Part shown: piece after piece, positions 3,449 through 63,899 of the stretch
Layout of the letters: the number at the start of each line of letters is the position of its first letter
How positions within the stretch are numbered: position 1 is the stretch's first letter
Origin: Limnovirga soli
GTDB taxonomy: Bacteria > Bacteroidota > Bacteroidia > Chitinophagales > Chitinophagaceae
DNA: 64,000 nucleotides
Direction: 5' to 3'
Assembly (NCBI RefSeq): GCF_013106755.1
Contig: NZ_WHPF01000010.1
Coordinates: forward strand, 162,335 to 226,334
Translations under genes and position numbers: made by a program
The notes under the pieces: model-generated
Told to the model about the DNA's origin: nothing
Databases searched by the model: none
The model's input: only the letters and a program-made list of their open reading frames with translations

Positions 3449-5311
3449 CTACCTATACCCTTTTGCCTGTAGTTGAAATAACTCGGCATAGCGGCCATTT
3501 TGTTGCAGCAATTGTTCATGGCTGCCCAGTTCTATCAACTGCCCTTTTTCCAGCACCAGAATACGGTCGGCCATGCGCACGGTAGAAAAACGGTGTGAAA
3601 TCAATACTGCAGATTTGCCCTTTGTCAGCTCAGCAAAACGTTGAAACACTTCATACTCTGCACGGGCATCCAGCGCACTGGTAGGTTCATCTAATATCAA
3701 TACTTCGGCTTCCTTCATATAGGCGCGGGCCAATGCTACTTTCTGCCATTCACCGCCCGATAATTCTATGCCATCATTAAAACGGCGGCCCAATGCCTGA
3801 TCATATTGATTGGGTAATTTCATGGCCAACAGGTTAGCCAGGCTTTTTTCAGCAGCCTTAATAATTAAAGGGCGGTTATTTTGCTCATCTATATTACCAA
3901 CTGCAATATTTTGCGCAAAGCTCATCTGGTAGCGCAGGTAATCCTGAAAAATAACGCCTATATGTTTGCGCAGTTGCAAAATATCATATTCCTTCAGGTC
4001 TATATCATCCAATAAAATACGGCCCTCTTCAGGATCATATAAACGGGCCAATAGTTTTACCAGCGTGGTTTTGCCGGCTCCGTTCTCCCCTACCAATGCC
4101 AGTTTTTCACCAGCATGTAAGGTAAAACTCAAATAACGGTTGGCCCATTGCTCGCTATTGGCATATCTAAAACCTACATTTTCAAATACAAAACCCTTTT
4201 GTATGGGGTTAGGAAATGGTAGCGGGGTTTTGCTCACTTTTATTTTGGGTTTTATTTCAAAAAAATCAAAGAAATCCCTTAAGTAAATAGCCCCCTGAGA
4301 TACCGTACTAAAACGCGATAATATCCCTTCCAGTAAACTGCGTAACTGACGGAAAGAGCCGGCCAGGAATGTAAGATCACCGATGGACAAAGACCCTTCT
4401 ACCGTTTTTAAAATCATAATAATATAGGCCGCATAATACCCCATACTACCCAATATGGCAAACAAACTACCCCATGCTGCCCTGCGGGTAGAAAGCGATT
4501 TATTATCCGCATAAAACTGCTGACTAAGTGCCTTAAACCGTTTTATCAAAAAGCCTGACAAATCAAAGAGTTTTACTTCTTTGGCAGTCTCGTCGCTGGC
4601 GCCCAGGTAACGCATATAATCCAATTCGCGGCGTTGAGGGGTTTGCCCGCGGGTAAGCGCATAACTTTGATCGTTAAAATAAGATTCGCCCAAAAAAGCA
4701 GGTACAATTGCTATTAGTAATAACAATATCAACCATGGGTTAAAAGCCATTAAGCCCACTGCTAAAAACAACATGGTAATTAAATCCTGCACCTGCGTTA
4801 ATACCTGCGATAATAATACAGTCCGCCCAACGGTTTGCTGGCGGGCACGTTCCAGCTTATCGTAAAAAGCAGAGTCTTCAAACTGGTCAAGGTCCAGGGT
4901 GGCGGCATGTTCCATAATTTTTACAGAAGTATGGTTAGAAAACAAATCGCCCAATAAACCATCAACCAGCGATATGGCCCGGCTTAATGCATCAGATACT
5001 ATTGCCAATACAAACTCAGCTGCCACCAACTGCCACAAATAAGTATGATCTGTATTTGAATCAGGTGTTTTGGCTAACAGTACCACCTGATCAATAATCA
5101 ATTTACCAATATATAAAATAGCCACAGGTACGGCAGATTTGGCAATACGCAAAACAGCATTAATAATAGTGTACCAGCAATTGGTTTGCCAAACCAAAGC
5201 AAAAAAACGGGGCAGGTTACGCAGGGCAGCAAATTTTTCTTTTAAAGTTGGTTGTGGCACCCGGTTGTATAACAGCGGCCTTTTTTCGCGGGCCATTCTT
5301 ACCTTACTCAT
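3449..5311 (-). CDS. ABC exporter with fused N-terminal permease and C-terminal ATPase (MsbA-like)
   Basis: Walker A GENGAGKTT, ABC signature LSGGEWQKVALARA, Walker B ILDEPTSALD, and multiple N-terminal TM helices. The track start at 5329 is TTG; the first in-frame ATG is at 5311 (MSKVRMAREK). Confidence 0.9.
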   Translation of the reverse strand: MSKVRMAREKRPLLYNRVPQPTLKEKFAALRNLPRFFALVWQTNCWYTIINAVLRIAKSAVPVAILYIGKLIIDQVVLLAKTPDSNTDHTYLWQLVAAEFVLAIVSDALSRAISLVDGLLGDLFSNHTSVKIMEHAATLDLDQFEDSAFYDKLERARQQTVGRTVLLSQVLTQVQDLITMLFLAVGLMAFNPWLILLLLIAIVPAFLGESYFNDQSYALTRGQTPQRRELDYMRYLGASDETAKEVKLFDLSGFLIKRFKALSQQFYADNKSLSTRRAAWGSLFAILGSMGYYAAYIIMILKTVEGSLSIGDLTFLAGSFRQLRSLLEGILSRFSTVSQGAIYLRDFFDFFEIKPKIKVSKTPLPFPNPIQKGFVFENVGFRYANSEQWANRYLSFTLHAGEKLALVGENGAGKTTLVKLLARLYDPEEGRILLDDIDLKEYDILQLRKHIGVIFQDYLRYQMSFAQNIAVGNIDEQNNRPLIIKAAEKSLANLLAMKLPNQYDQALGRRFNDGIELSGGEWQKVALARAYMKEAEVLILDEPTSALDARAEYEVFQRFAELTKGKSAVLISHRFSTVRMADRILVLEKGQLIELGSHEQLLQQNGRYAELFQLQAKGYR

Positions 5312-5698: not shown

Positions 5699-5773
5699 GT
5701 TCAGTTAATATTTCAGCTTTAATTTTTTGTTTAAATAGAAATACAACCCCGCATAATTTGGGTATTTGTTTTA

Positions 5774-5823
5774 GCCGCCACAAAGGTGGAACCCCGAACC
5801 GAGCGTGGCAAGCGGTGATGCCA
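5774..5823 (+). repeat. Family-2 element GCCGCCACAAAGGTGGAACCCCGAACCGAGCGTGGCAAG followed by TGGCA-N7-TGCCA hairpin
   Basis: Direct read. Five related copies in the window. Overlapping six-frame ORFs carry a conserved ..NRAWQAVMP.. peptide, which is a translation artifact of the repeat. Confidence 0.8.
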
Positions 5824-5896
5824 TTTATGCAACAGCCGGTTACCCAATAAAAAAAGCCCCGTACCATGTACAGGGCTTTTATAATAGTGATTTTTT

Positions 5897-14034: not shown

Positions 14035-14151
14035 TTTTTTGCTTTAAAAGTCTGTGTATTTAGAGGACTTGACTATACCCATCACCGCGTATTTTTTGAA
14101 AAGCATAATAAAAAATATGGCTTAAATTGATAATAATGCGACTGCTGTTTT

Positions 14152-14202
14152 GCCGCCATAAAAGAGGAACCCTGAACCGAGCGTGGCAAGCGGTGATGCC
14201 AT
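14152..14202 (+). repeat. Family-2 element (GCCGCCATAAAAGAGGAACCCTGAACCGAGCGTGGCAAGCGGTGATGCCA)
   Basis: Direct read. Confidence 0.8.
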
Positions 14203-14254
14203 GGTTAACCAAAGCTGGTTTCAAAAAAAATAATAAGAATGTTTTTGTGCTTTA

Positions 14255-27082: not shown

Positions 27083-27364
27083 ATGAATAAACAACCTTCA
27101 CTGGTATTTTGCCTTTTAATGGATTTGCTTGGCAGTATTACCTATATCATTCCAGGTATTGGTGAAACGGCCGATATTATTTGGGCACCTATATCGGGTT
27201 ATCTGTTTTATAAAACTTTTGGTGGGCGTAAAGCAGCTATTGGTGGCCTGTTTAACTTTGCAGAAGAACTGCTGCTGTTTACCGATATCATTCCCAGCTT
27301 TACCATTATGTGGCTTATACAGCGCTTTTATGCCAATAAGCCATTACCAATTTTGCCGCTATGA
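27083..27364 (+). CDS. Small membrane protein, hypothetical
   Basis: 93 aa with two hydrophobic helices. Its stop codon and last codons lie inside a family-2 repeat copy. Confidence 0.45.
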   Translation: MNKQPSLVFCLLMDLLGSITYIIPGIGETADIIWAPISGYLFYKTFGGRKAAIGGLFNFAEELLLFTDIIPSFTIMWLIQRFYANKPLPILPL

Positions 27365-27393
27365 AAGCGGAACCCTGAACCGAGCGTGGCAAG
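27355..27393 (+). repeat. Family-2 element (GCCGCTATGAAAGCGGAACCCTGAACCGAGCGTGGCAAG); supplies the stop codon of the small membrane-protein gene
   Basis: Direct read. Confidence 0.75.
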
Positions 27394-27512
27394 CAAAGTT
27401 CCTTTTTATTCTACAGTTTAGTCCCAAAAAACAAATAACCAAAAGACAAAAAGCTTTAAAATAATTACCCAATTTTATTTTTACCAATTTGGGGTAATTA
27501 TTATATTTATAC

Positions 27513-32284: not shown

Positions 32285-32340
32285 TCTGTATTTATTTCTG
32301 TTATTTTTTTTTGTTACCAGCCAATAATCAATATGCAGCT

Positions 32341-32384
32341 TTACTTGCCACGCTCGGTTCAGGGTTCCTCCTTTGTGGCAGCTG
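32341..32384 (-). repeat. Family-2 element, reverse orientation (CTTGCCACGCTCGGTTCAGGGTTCCTCCTTTGTGGCAGC)
   Basis: Direct read. Confidence 0.8.
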
Positions 32385-48789: not shown

Positions 48790-49275
48790 CTACATCACGT
48801 TTTCCGGACTAACCAGGTAATTGCGCAAGGTTAGTCTGGCCCTGTGCAGATATACTTTCACCTGTGCCGCATTTAAGCCGGTAATTTGTCCAATTTCTTC
48901 ATAACTATATCCTTCATAGTCTTTTAACATTACCAGGCTCTTCTGCACCTCATTTAATCTGTTTAGTGCTTCCTGCAGCGATTGCCTTAGGTTGGTTACC
49001 GGTTGACGGGTGCTTCTCCCATCTTCCTTTAATTCATCCGTTAATTGCACCCTCTTGCTTTTTCTCAAATGATCTATCATCTGGTTATAGGCCACCGTAA
49101 ACAGGTAAGATTTGCATTTTGCATATTCCACCATATCCCGGTTGCGCCAGAGTTTTTCAAACGCTGTTTGAACAATATCCTTCGCATCATCCTCATGCCG
49201 TAAATTCTTTACGATGAAGCGAAACACGTTGTCAGCGTATTGATTCACACATTGGTTATATTCCCTTTCCGTCAT
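48790..49275 (-). CDS. ECF-subfamily RNA polymerase sigma-70 factor
   Basis: Region 2 (FEKLWRNRDMVEY...YLFTVAYNQMIDHLR) and region 4 (SLVMLKDYEGYSYEEIGQITGLNAAQVKVYLHRAR). The ATG at 49275 is preferred. Confidence 0.88.
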   Translation of the reverse strand: MTEREYNQCVNQYADNVFRFIVKNLRHEDDAKDIVQTAFEKLWRNRDMVEYAKCKSYLFTVAYNQMIDHLRKSKRVQLTDELKEDGRSTRQPVTNLRQSLQEALNRLNEVQKSLVMLKDYEGYSYEEIGQITGLNAAQVKVYLHRARLTLRNYLVSPENVM

Positions 49276-49400
49276 AAGCTGTATTTCTTGGTCTGTGCAT
49301 TGAAAGTACACCTGTTATACGTTGCAGCATTTTTAAAGTTACAGGGTAGGCAAAATATTTCTACAATTGGCCTTATTCATTTTTATACCTCTTTTATTAG

Positions 49401-51564: not shown

Positions 51565-51780
51565 GCCAGGCTAATGGCCTGCAAACCAGGCTTTACTTGC
51601 GTCGCACTCTTGTACGGCAGCAAATGGGGCAACAAAGATTTTACCCACTGTTTATGGCTTTACAAATGGATTGGCACCTGTATTTGAAATAATCAATACC
51701 CAAAAAAAAACTGCTGCCTGTGGGTATAAACGTACAAGTGAGTGACACAACGGATGCATCATGCTTATTCTACAGCCGGC
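51565..51780. repeat. Family-1 full composite (forward core 51597-51615; variant reverse core 51732-51751; box CTACAGCCGGC 51770-51780) between the atpC terminator and the ruvB stop
   Basis: Direct read. Confidence 0.8.
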
Positions 51781-53357: not shown

Positions 53358-53373
53358 ATTTGTATATACAAAT
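53358..53373. promoter_or_regulatory. 16-bp perfect palindrome ATTTGTATATACAAAT in the divergent promoter region between the DMT transporter gene (52880-53323) and marR; candidate MarR operator
   Basis: Perfect inverted repeat. An identical copy lies at 53869-53884. Confidence 0.5.
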
Positions 53374-53426
53374 AAAAACATTCTATCTTTGACATCTCAA
53401 AAAAACAAAAGCACCTGGTGCTATTA

Positions 53427-53849
53427 ATGAAAACCTCAGAAAGCAGATATTGTAAGTGTATGTATTTTTCAGCCAATGCTCTGGCCCGAAAAATAGAAAA
53501 ACTCGCAGTTGACAGCTGGAAGATGATTGATTTATCGCCCAGCCACGCTTATTTACTGATGGCCGTTATTAGTGAACCGGGTATACAGCCAGGCGGACTG
53601 GCAGATGAGCTACAACTTACACCCAGCACCATTACCCGGCTTATTGAAAAACTGGAAGAAAAAAAATTAGTGGTACGTACCACAGATGGTAAACTTACCA
53701 ATGTGTACCCAACACCAAAAGCAAAAGAGCTGCAACCAAAAATGAAAGAATGCTCAGCCAGATTTTACGAAAACTATGCCGGCATATTGGGCAGGGAAGA
53801 AAGTTATAAGCTGGTAGAAAGCATTAACAAACTGGCAGATAAACTATAA
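53427..53849 (+). CDS. MarR-family transcriptional regulator
   Basis: Winged-helix core LSPSHAYLLMAVISEPGIQPGGLADELQLTPSTITRLIEKLEEKKLVVR. First ATG at 53427 (the track start at 53418 is GTG). Confidence 0.85.
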   Translation: MKTSESRYCKCMYFSANALARKIEKLAVDSWKMIDLSPSHAYLLMAVISEPGIQPGGLADELQLTPSTITRLIEKLEEKKLVVRTTDGKLTNVYPTPKAKELQPKMKECSARFYENYAGILGREESYKLVESINKLADKL

Positions 53850-54840: not shown

Positions 54841-54889
54841 GCCCGGCTGTAGTACAGTCATGCAGCATCCTTGCGTCGCACACTTGTAC
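54841..54889 (+). repeat. Family-1 element (GCCCGGCTGTAG ... TTGCGTCGCACACTTGTAC) between the NmrA-like and MDR genes
   Basis: Direct read. Confidence 0.85.
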
Positions 54890-55854: not shown

Positions 55855-55910
55855 GCACAGGCATAATTGCAGTAATAAACTCACGCATTCTTTGCTTAGC
55901 TATTGATGCA

Positions 55911-55970
55911 GTACAAGTGTGCGACGCAAGTATGCCCAATAGTACTGCCTTAGCCCGGCTAATAATTTTA
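55911..55970 (-). repeat. Family-1 element (core 55911-55930; GCCCGGC 55963-55969) between the MDR gene and the F420-type reductase gene
   Basis: Direct read. Confidence 0.85.
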
Positions 55971-58123: not shown

Positions 58124-58172
58124 ACCCGGCAATAGTATTGTTATTAGGCATACTTGCGTCGCACACTTGTAC
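58124..58172 (+). repeat. Family-1 element (ACCCGGCAATAG ... TTGCGTCGCACACTTGTAC) between the thioredoxin-like and AKR genes
   Basis: Direct read. Confidence 0.85.
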
Positions 58173-59301: not shown

Positions 59302-59321
59302 ATTGTATAATTCGTATAATA

Positions 59322-59351
59322 AAATGCTCCTGATACAGGGGCATTTTTGTT
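59322..59351 (+). terminator. Rho-independent terminator after the aldo/keto reductase gene
   Basis: Stem AATGCTCCTG / CAGGGGCATT (one mismatch), loop ATA, then TTTTTGTTTT. Confidence 0.6.
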
Positions 59352-59514
59352 TTAACCCACTTGTAGAAAGGATAGTAATGGCAAAAAAATACCCGGACTT
59401 TAAAAAAGCCCGGGCGGGTGTACAAAAGGTTAGTAACGGCGTTACTTAAGCAGACCTACAGGGGTTGGGGTTAAAACCAGCACAAATGTAGATATCCCAT
59501 TTTTCCTGTACAAG

Positions 59515-59571
59515 GTGATTTATCACGCATTTTTTCGCGTGATAAATCACACCCTGCGTGATTTATCACGC
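59515..59571. promoter_or_regulatory. Array of three palindromic operators GTGAT-TT-ATCAC / GTGAT-AA-ATCAC / GTGAT-TT-ATCAC (each flanked by GC/GCG), centres about 21-22 bp apart, about 75 bp upstream of the small ORF at 59645; the array is flanked by the inverted repeats GGTTAAAACC (59470-59479) and GGTTTTAACC (59579-59588)
   Basis: Direct read: gtgatttatcacgc at 59515-59528, gcgtgataaatcac at 59537-59550, gtgatttatcacgc at 59558-59571. Confidence 0.5.
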
Positions 59572-59644
59572 GAAAACCGGGTTTTAACCTGATTTGCAGT
59601 GGCTTATATATGCTATCATTTTACTTTCGTGAAAAATATTGGCT

Positions 59645-59938
59645 ATGAATATTTTAGATTTTATAAAAACTACTGAAGAAACCACCCAACCGGCAGGGTT
59701 AACAGTGCACCTGGCAGCACTTTGGCAGGATGCAAAAGGCGATTGGCAGGCTGCACATAGTTTGATAGACCAGTTAACAGATACCACATCGGCATGGGTA
59801 CATGCTTATCTGCACCGTAAAGAAGGGGATAACAGCAATGCCCGTTACTGGTATAACCGTGCAGGCAAACCTTTCCCTTCTATTAGTTTACAGGAAGAAT
59901 GGACTGTGATAGCCACGGCCTTATTGGCAAAACGCTAA
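59645..59938 (+). CDS. Small hypothetical protein (about 97 aa)
   Basis: The ORF has no recognisable motifs. First ATG at 59645. It is preceded by an array of three palindromic operators. Confidence 0.4.
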   Translation: MNILDFIKTTEETTQPAGLTVHLAALWQDAKGDWQAAHSLIDQLTDTTSAWVHAYLHRKEGDNSNARYWYNRAGKPFPSISLQEEWTVIATALLAKR

Positions 59939-59939
59939 T

Positions 59940-59985
59940 GCCGCCACAAAGGAGGAACCCTGAACCGAGCGTGGCAAGTAAAGCC
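59940..59985 (+). repeat. Family-2 element (GCCGCCACAAAGGAGGAACCCTGAACCGAGCGTGGCAAGTAAAGC) abutting the stop of the small ORF
   Basis: Direct read. Confidence 0.8.
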
Positions 59986-60009
59986 TGATATTTATTCTAC
60001 TGTTGGTAA

Positions 60010-60048
60010 CATAAAAAAAGAGCCGTTATTTACTAACGACTCTTTCTG
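60010..60048 (-). terminator. Candidate terminator after the flotillin-like gene (minus strand)
   Basis: On the minus strand: stem AAAGAGTCG...CGGCTCTTT (one mismatch) followed by TTTTTTTAT. Confidence 0.5.
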
Positions 60049-63850: not shown

Positions 63851-63899
63851 GCCCGGCAGTAGCGCCAGTGGCAACTTTACTTGCGTCGCACTATTGTAC
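63851..63899 (+). repeat. Family-1 element (GCCCGGCAGTAG ... CTTTACTTGCGTCGCACTATTGTAC)
   Basis: Direct read. Confidence 0.85.

Follow-up and report, generated by a model that had tools for sequence, protein, structure and literature searches.

Three tandem palindromes beside a predicted leftward promoter in Limnovirga soli: a candidate operator module shared with Chitinophagaceae prophages

The intergenic region between an AKR gene and a 97-aa open reading frame (ORF) of Limnovirga soli, within the 64-kb stretch of DNA analysed here (the window), contains three short palindromes, designated O1, O2 and O3, next to which a promoter and a short terminated unit are predicted on the minus strand. 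The region is preceded by the terminator of the AKR gene (59321-59347), and a copy of a dispersed repeat (59936-60020) follows the ORF; both are present as described in the first-pass annotation of this DNA. From the sequence, the palindromes are probably operators which, together with the adjacent sigma-A promoter, constitute one regulatory module, a leftward promoter for a candidate small RNA (sRNA). This reading is favoured here, with a confidence that falls well short of certainty. The features of the region, in window coordinates, are the following:

59382 to 59415, minus strand: intrinsic terminator (stem 59415-59391), GCCCGGGCTTTTTTAAAGTCCGGGT then ATTTTTTT, with 11 pairs, 6 of them G-C, and a seven-T run
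59383 to 59478, minus strand: predicted transcript of about 96 nt, a candidate sRNA called from promoter, terminator and fold
59432 to 59446: palindrome AGTAACG-G-CGTTACT
59469 to 59478: left arm of an outer inverted repeat, GGTTAAAACC, overlying the first 10 nt of the predicted transcript
59483 to 59490, minus strand: -7 box TACATTTG (TAnnTTTG), with a predicted transcription start near 59478
59511 to 59513, minus strand (CAA on the plus strand): -33 element TTG; the pattern TTG-N20-TACATTTG spans minus-strand 59513 to 59483
59515 to 59526: O1, promoter-proximal, GTGATTTATCAC on the plus strand and GTGATAAATCAC on the minus strand; exact match, centre at about -42.5, 1 nt from the -33 TTG
59539 to 59550: O2, GTGATAAATCAC on the plus strand; exact match, centre at about -66.5, AA at the middle
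59558 to 59569: O3, GTGATTTATCAC on the plus strand; exact match, centre at about -85.5, TT at the middle as in O1
59580 to 59589: right arm of the outer inverted repeat, GGTTTTAACC, 11 nt past O3
59645 to 59938, plus strand: 97-aa ORF, a conserved TPR-like helical protein, outside the module

The window contains three exact matches to GTGATNNATCAC and no others, against 0.00 expected from 100 dinucleotide shuffles, and no further copy, even with one mismatch, is found elsewhere in the 64 kb; the three palindromes are far beyond chance. The first-pass annotation had already recognised them as an array, and the three exact 12-mers do exist, but its coordinates took in flanking bases and were off by 1-3 nt, and the GC/GCG flanks that it ascribed to each palindrome are only partially symmetrical. 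Nor is the spacing the regular one of about 21 bp, or two helical turns, that had been proposed: the start-to-start steps measure 24 and 19 bp, and only O1 and O3, 43 bp apart, are in helical phase, with O2 offset. Together with their flanks, O2 and O3 make up a perfect 19-bp inverted repeat (59532-50 and 59558-76), and O1 and O2 one of 14 bp. The bracketing inverted repeats and the AGTAACG palindrome were both recovered at the positions listed above. The outer-repeat sequence GGTTTTAACC has only two copies in the window (0.48 expected), which are inverted and bracket both the promoter and the array; it was not seen in the prophage modules described below when the sequences were compared by eye.

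The sigma-A consensus of Bacteroidetes consists of TAnnTTTG plus a TTG or TTTG near -33 (PMC7366714, PMC9723704), with the -7 box spanning -12 to -5 (PMC9723704). Both elements are present in the window, namely a TAnnTTTG -7 box and a -33 TTG within the expected 19-21 nt upstream; the spacer between them is 20 nt, identical in length in all seven related modules. In minus-strand order, the module runs O3, 7 nt, O2, 12 nt, O1, 1 nt, TTG (-33), 20 nt and TACATTTG (-7). The promoter is thus predicted on the minus strand, directed away from the 97-aa ORF, and no mirror-image promoter follows O3 on the plus strand, where the sequence reads G-CGA-N20-TTGCAGTG. From the predicted start, the terminator is reached after about 65-95 nt, and no other minus-strand gene would need it, since the flotillin-like gene ends in a terminator of its own (60047-60015). 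No credible ORF is found in the unit of about 96 nt, and the short RNA read from the promoter is probably non-coding. Its predicted fold comprises a 5' stem, the hairpin AGUAACG-C-CGUUACU (59446-59432) and the terminator hairpin, and an Rfam search of the unit returned noise only. The hallmarks of an sRNA gene (its own promoter, an intrinsic terminator, the lack of an ORF and conservation) are all present as predictions, the conservation coming from a single relative.

Seven sequences related to the window module were assembled, six of which are independent. The first of them, L001, is a Logan contig from one close relative. The second, L141, was found by scanning viral contigs for two 12-mers close together and is a 39.9-kb predicted prophage that belongs to Limnovirga soli (Chitinophagaceae). 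Its array reads GTGATTTATCAC, 12 nt, GTGATAAATCAC, 7 nt, GTGATTTATCAC, with the centres and the 24/19 spacing of the window; the two modules are identical at 65 of 89 positions, with similar spacers and unrelated flanks. Three prophage contigs syntenic with L141 were fetched via the 86-aa ORF that adjoins the array (L160, L161 and L163, where L161 and L162 represent one locus), and at the corresponding intergenic position each of them carries two to three copies of GTGATAAATCAC, spaced 22-23 bp apart. Finally, a genome scan yielded related arrays in unrelated gene contexts in two metagenome-assembled genomes (MAGs), one of Segetibacter (L050) and one of Chitinophagales (L004). The copy number ranges from 2 to 5. 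Behind the last 12-mer, every related sequence has one base, TT(G/T), exactly 20 nt and (T/C)AnnTTT(G/A):

Window (minus strand): C-TTG-N20-TACATTTG
L141: G-TTG-N20-TATTTTTG
L160 and L161: G-TTG-N20-TAAATTTG
L163: G-TTG-N20-TACATTTG
L050: G-TTG-N20-TAATTTTA
L004: A-TTT-N20-CATCTTTG

The placing of O1 relative to TTG-N20-TAnnTTTG is repeated in L001, L141, L160, L161, L163 and L004, and L050 has a disrupted copy at the equivalent position. The offsets of O2 from O1 (24 bp) and of O3 from O2 (19 bp) are kept in L001 and L141, which share with the window the site centres -42.5, -66.5 and -85.5; those of L160 and L163 lie at -42.5, -64.5 and about -87, and a 22-bp periodicity is seen in L160, L163 and L004. 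Across the modules, the 12-mers and the promoter boxes are kept while the spacers and the transcribed DNA diverge, which argues for protein-binding sites coupled to a promoter. Among the roles previously suggested for the array, that of operators for a dimeric transcription factor is accordingly the best supported, as the same 12-mers recur at the same promoter distance in seven other sequences whose surroundings have diverged.

The genomic contexts of these modules differ. The genes on either side of the array in the four prophages are co-directional, none being divergent; downstream of the promoter come a gene for a 49-aa membrane protein and several consecutive unannotated genes, one of them for a phospholipase D (PLD)-like nuclease. 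The L004 array lies between a secreted protein gene and sucD, with dprA also nearby. At 4184-4295 and 4319-4432 lie five tandem 22-bp units, ATGTGA(T/A)AAATCACAT..., and, behind them, a weak promoter and a terminated unit. This unit, about 110 nt long, is comparable in layout to the RNA unit of the window but cannot be aligned with it, and which could also encode an 18-aa peptide, MNFKNLTRGGYYMLAITAVL. In L050, the promoter-proximal site (508-545) reads GTGATAA-ACACCCCCCTAAAAAAGGGTGTTT-ATCAC, seemingly interrupted by about 24 inserted nucleotides which themselves form a hairpin. Further searches added no other modules: a looser three-site pattern matched, among the viral contigs, only L141 and AT-rich tandem repeats of giant viruses, the operator-plus-promoter pattern matched L141 only, phage and plasmid collections contained no significant BLAST match to the module, and a literature search for the 12-mers returned only primers and unrelated matches. 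Most tandem matches of the genome scan were discarded as unrelated REP-type (repetitive extragenic palindrome) or tandem repeats from other phyla in which the 12-mer is coincidental (Ktedonobacteraceae, Parabeggiatoa, Hallella with a RAYT gene, Enterococcus and others). In Hallella colorans (L031), GTAG-type REPs (GTAGGGGCGTGATTTATCACGTTCCGCC) at 1490-1640 and 2515-2625 flank an IS200-like Y1 transposase ORF at 1690-2274, a textbook RAYT/REP layout.

The comparison with L001, whose counterpart of the 97-aa ORF is 92% identical, shows where the region is conserved. Divergence amounts to 2.9% at the 3' coding end of the AKR gene, 14.8% in its terminator and the spacer (59302-59382, 12 in 81), 1.9% in 59383-59644 (5 of 262) and 7.8% in the 97-aa ORF (23 in 294); the contrast between 59383-59644 and the adjacent spacer gives a Fisher p of 3e-5. 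All three 12-mers are unchanged, and the three L001 changes within the array fall in spacers or flanks and are non-compensatory for long hairpins. The predicted transcript of about 96 nt shows only 2 differences, and the change at 59391 (A to G) turns a G.U into a G-C pair at the base of the terminator stem. A short plus-strand ORF at 59303-59449 was rejected because an indel in L001 shifts its frame.

The sites, their geometry, their conservation across diverged sequences and the terminator are direct observations, from which we infer protein binding, promoter activity, an RNA product and a sign of regulation in the following way. A dyad-recognising, presumably dimeric, DNA-binding protein would occupy the three 12-mers. 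The proximal dimer, centred at -42.5, would abut the -33 element and either contact the RNA polymerase, in a class-II-like activation, or occlude the -33 element and thereby repress, while the upstream sites O2 and O3 would add cooperative occupancy. Transcription would proceed leftward from a start near 59478 to the terminator at 59415-59382, yielding a transcript of about 96 nt. With its centre at -42.5, O1 takes the classical position of a class II activator; activation would suit this position and also the L004 promoter, with its poor -33 and -7 boxes. Repression, in turn, would suit the near-consensus promoters of the window and L163, as a bound dimer would cover the -33 element. The module has probably been passed between phage and this chromosome.

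As regards the regulator itself, the nearest regulator genes in the window encode a MarR protein (53418-53849) and an extracytoplasmic function (ECF) sigma factor (48790-49311), both several kb off (17 ORFs of the window were scanned against Pfam). The 86-aa winged-helix-like protein whose gene lies directly upstream of the prophage arrays may be considered a speculative candidate. Its AlphaFold2 (AF2) model has the winged-helix topology H-S-H-H-S-S, its best folds are Fur-DBD (the Fur DNA-binding domain), Rok, RosR and BlaI, and its family comprises about 50 clusters at 50% identity, several members of which have weak Pfam matches to winged helix-turn-helix (HTH) families. Scans of the prophage neighbours against Pfam, PHROGs and NCBIfam for a repressor or a terminase left almost all of them unannotated. 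It is conceivable, albeit unlikely, that a prophage regulator, possibly this 86-aa protein, recognises CGTGATWWATCACG, and that the host captured the phage operator-promoter module and set an sRNA under its control. If so, a host sRNA would be switched by the presence or state of a phage, which could serve the host as a phage-sensing response or the phage as a means to reprogramme its host.

Two further elements may be recorded here in their own right. Just upstream of the MarR-family gene, which is divergent from a YdcZ exporter gene, a promoter-like TTG-N21-TATCTTTG at 53360-53391 contains the palindrome TTGTATATACAA, likely a MarR autoregulatory site. In the phages, a conserved, structured-looking element is located just upstream of the winged-helix-like ORF (L141 5539-5670, minus strand; L160/L161 5872-6003; L163 251-382; L164 283-414; L165 7-138; L166 2872-3003). 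In it, an outer helix, GGGUUGAGG/CCUCAACC, encloses two hairpins, after which come a U-run and the ATG; RNAalifold assigns it 29 pairs, 9 of them with compensatory changes, and there is no Rfam match (L163-L166). This element could be a complex terminator or a cis-regulatory RNA.

Several findings weigh against an operator module that drives an sRNA. Matches to the strict promoter pattern number 6 in the window versus 7.7 expected, which is no enrichment, and the pattern was for that reason dropped as sole evidence, so that the promoter call rests on the invariant geometry across diverged sequences. The fold of the RNA of about 96 nt is unexceptional (z = -1.8), and no homologue of the unit was found in the other fetched loci or in viral contigs: it shows no homology to the L004 unit or to prophage DNA, and pieces of it scanned against viral contigs gave nothing or chance matches. 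The conservation of the RNA unit comes from a single close relative, which means few substitutions and gives no covariation. The module is also rare, with two Chitinophagales loci carrying two perfect tandem sites among 185,579 species genomes (species representatives, a set to which the source genome does not belong), and this rarity makes a large host regulon unlikely. With respect to the candidate regulator, the model of the 86-aa protein is of moderate confidence (pLDDT 69) and its fold E-values are weak (0.07 or higher), its gene is absent from the window, and a distant syntenic phage (L166/L167) has the gene without the array.

The array was first taken for the promoter region of the 97-aa ORF, itself called an orphan, and neither claim is borne out. 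With 3,559 homologues at E <= 0.001, most of which are from Bacteroidota, the protein is no orphan, and its AF2 model (pLDDT 97.5) has six helices with TPR-like matches; it belongs to no Pfam or NCBIfam family, but represents a large unnamed Bacteroidota family with an invariant HAYLHR-EGD-NA-YWY motif. It is rather unlikely that the array is the operator region of a plus-strand promoter for this ORF, or that it regulates both divergent units. Such an arrangement would fit its position 75 nt upstream of the ORF start, in a stretch that is 100% identical in L001, and divergent pairs of an sRNA and a gene with a shared control region are common. However, the conserved promoter lies on the opposite strand, with no N1-TTG-N20-TAnnTTTG on the plus strand after O3, the prophage arrays have no divergent gene, and the 12-mer motif is absent upstream of the homologues at 80 metagenome loci (47-63% identity), where only scattered single one-mismatch matches occur. 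Moreover, in relatives the ORF either ends an operon or adjoins another gene: in L171 an AKR gene is followed by an operon of lgt, a radical-SAM gene and a 92-aa gene that ends in the translationally coupled ORF homologue, and in L173 the homologue adjoins ruvB. As relatives carry different genes upstream of the ORF, the AKR-to-ORF segment of the window is lineage-specific, and the ORF's own promoter must, as far as can be read from the DNA, lie within 59570-59644.

A further alternative holds that the module works in the phage and is an inert relic in this chromosome, left after recombination with a prophage. The window module is indeed closest to the version of the L141 prophage, the interval from the AKR gene to the ORF shows a rearrangement relative to L171, where the three genes mentioned above intervene, and the transcribed unit has no homologue elsewhere in the searches made. 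A relic would nevertheless not be expected to be much better conserved than the neighbouring spacer and the ORF, as 59383-59644 is, nor to have as the single change in its terminator stem one that strengthens a base pair, and a relic is regarded as distinctly unlikely.

It is very unlikely that the array is a site for phage DNA transactions, be it terminase binding (cos/pac-like), replication (iterons) or recombination, even if such a role is conceivable for the prophage copies. Two to five units at 22 bp do resemble iterons or the R sites of phage lambda cosB, and the prophage array lies about 2 kb upstream of genes for a 100-aa HTH-like and a 522-aa protein, possible terminase subunits without a family match. 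A fixed placing of the -33 and -7 boxes, as seen in the seven related sequences, would instead be expected of a transcriptional role; scans of the neighbouring ORFs revealed no adjacent Rep, integrase or recognised terminase family, and the chromosomal copies in housekeeping contexts (the window, and L004 by sucD and dprA) would have no use for such a site. For the recombination site that the first-pass annotation had also proposed, no evidence turned up, although no test was aimed at it.

That the array acts as a structure, in RNA or single-stranded DNA, is highly improbable. Alternative hairpins between units 1 and 2 or 2 and 3 would then serve as an attenuator, a riboswitch-like leader, as once suggested for this region, or a processing site. 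The perfect 19-bp and the 14-bp inverted repeats would allow such hairpins, and predicted folds of the region are much stronger than those of shuffles (z = -5.1 and -4.5), but this strong folding can be discounted as a by-product of palindromic sites. No U-run follows either hairpin on either strand, a T-run preceding the stem and an A-run following it, and no Rfam family matches the region. The central pairs are broken in 5 of 8 related sequences and the outer pairs are mostly broken; pairing (75.0% versus 74.2% in shuffles) and the covariation score, which was reached by 66 of 500 shuffles, are no better than chance, and two flank changes in L001 are uncompensated. Furthermore, the array would not be transcribed from the predicted promoter, because the promoter lies downstream of it.

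Equally improbable is a selfish palindrome cluster of the REP/BIME (bacterial interspersed mosaic element) kind mobilised by a RAYT transposase, since, even though the same 12-mer forms the hairpin core of GTAG-type REPs in other phyla and the alternating TT/AA/TT centres recall the alternating orientation of BIMEs, no GTAG or CTAC adjoins any of the three units, no further copies exist in 64 kb where two other repeat families abound, the units of the related modules share one orientation locked to the promoter, and what looks like GTAG in L050 belongs to the extended consensus TAGC-GTGAT.

The more abundant of these two other families is a dispersed intergenic repeat with about 30 sites in the window, in both orientations, of the form CTTGCGTCGCAC[AT]CTTGTAC, with the variant GTTGTGTCACTCACTTGTAC; examples are found at 58151-58170, 54868-54887, 55907-55926 (minus strand), 51594-51613 and 63878-63897. 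A GCCCGGCA-like box often lies about 30 nt upstream. The same repeat is present in L141, L160-L163 and L004, with identical 20-mers several times in the prophage contigs, where one copy has been mis-called as a 73-aa gene. The second family, GCCGCCACAAAGGAGGAACCCTGAACCGAGCGTGGCAAG, is represented at 5770-5854, 14148-14232, 27351-27435, 32326-32382 (minus strand) and 59936-60020, the last of which begins at the stop codon of the 97-aa ORF.

Taken together, the element is best filed as an uncharacterised operator-promoter cassette of Chitinophagaceae and their prophages, which here would drive a candidate sRNA. Regulation in Chitinophagaceae and their phages is almost unexplored, and although the feature is of an ordinary kind, its definition is clear and it lends itself to experiments: the operator CGTGATWWATCACG is delimited precisely, with a fixed geometry to a Bacteroidetes -33/-7 promoter in eight natural variants, seven of them independent. 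The array is reassigned from the 97-aa ORF, a widespread conserved protein, to a leftward transcription unit, for which a new small RNA is predicted. That the same control module occurs both on a chromosome and within prophages points to an exchange of regulatory cassettes between phage and host.

From the perspective of known systems, the module shares partial features with several. Like REP/BIME elements, it is made of short palindromic units, and the identical 12-mer is found in REPs of other phyla, but it has no GTAG, is not dispersed in the window and is fixed to a promoter. A resemblance to iterons may lie in the 22-bp repeats of some modules; no Rep family was found in the neighbouring ORFs. 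The sequence GCGTGAT-WW-ATCACGC can be read as a 7-2-7 inverted repeat like the NarL-type sites of LuxR/FixJ regulators, a likeness drawn from general knowledge; in contrast to these, the outer GC positions are unconserved in the related modules and no response regulator is linked. The GTGA...TCAC half-site core and the centre at about -42.5, near the classical -41.5, recall class II CRP/FNR promoters, from which the module differs in a gap of 4 bp (GTGA-TTTA-TCAC), where the inverted 5-bp half-sites of CRP/FNR place 6 bp between GTGA and TCAC (or TTGA and TCAA), in having several tandem sites and in that no CRP/FNR-family gene was identified nearby.

Two comparisons concern the module as a whole. 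As a short, ORF-less unit with promoter and terminator placed behind transcription factor sites, it would resemble the divergent sRNA genes controlled by transcription factors, such as oxyS/oxyR and gcvB/gcvA; unlike in these, the divergent gene encodes a TPR-like protein and not a DNA-binding regulator, there is no RNA family, and the sRNA is a prediction. The closest textbook case would be OR1-OR2-OR3/PRM of phage lambda, whose side of the comparison is general knowledge while that of the module is measured geometry. The module is not a divergent switch of the lambda type, as the prophage sites have co-directional genes and no second divergent promoter over them, and neither an adjacent cI/Cro-like gene nor an HTH repressor family was found among the prophage neighbours; its sites are also shorter (12-14 bp, 5-2-5, versus 17 bp), vary from 2 to 5 in number and are combined with a promoter of the Bacteroidetes -33/-7 type. 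By analogy with lambda, nonetheless, it has three near-identical dyad sites about two helical turns apart, a proximal site near -42 of the promoter and an association with temperate phages, and cooperative occupancy of its sites would be expected.

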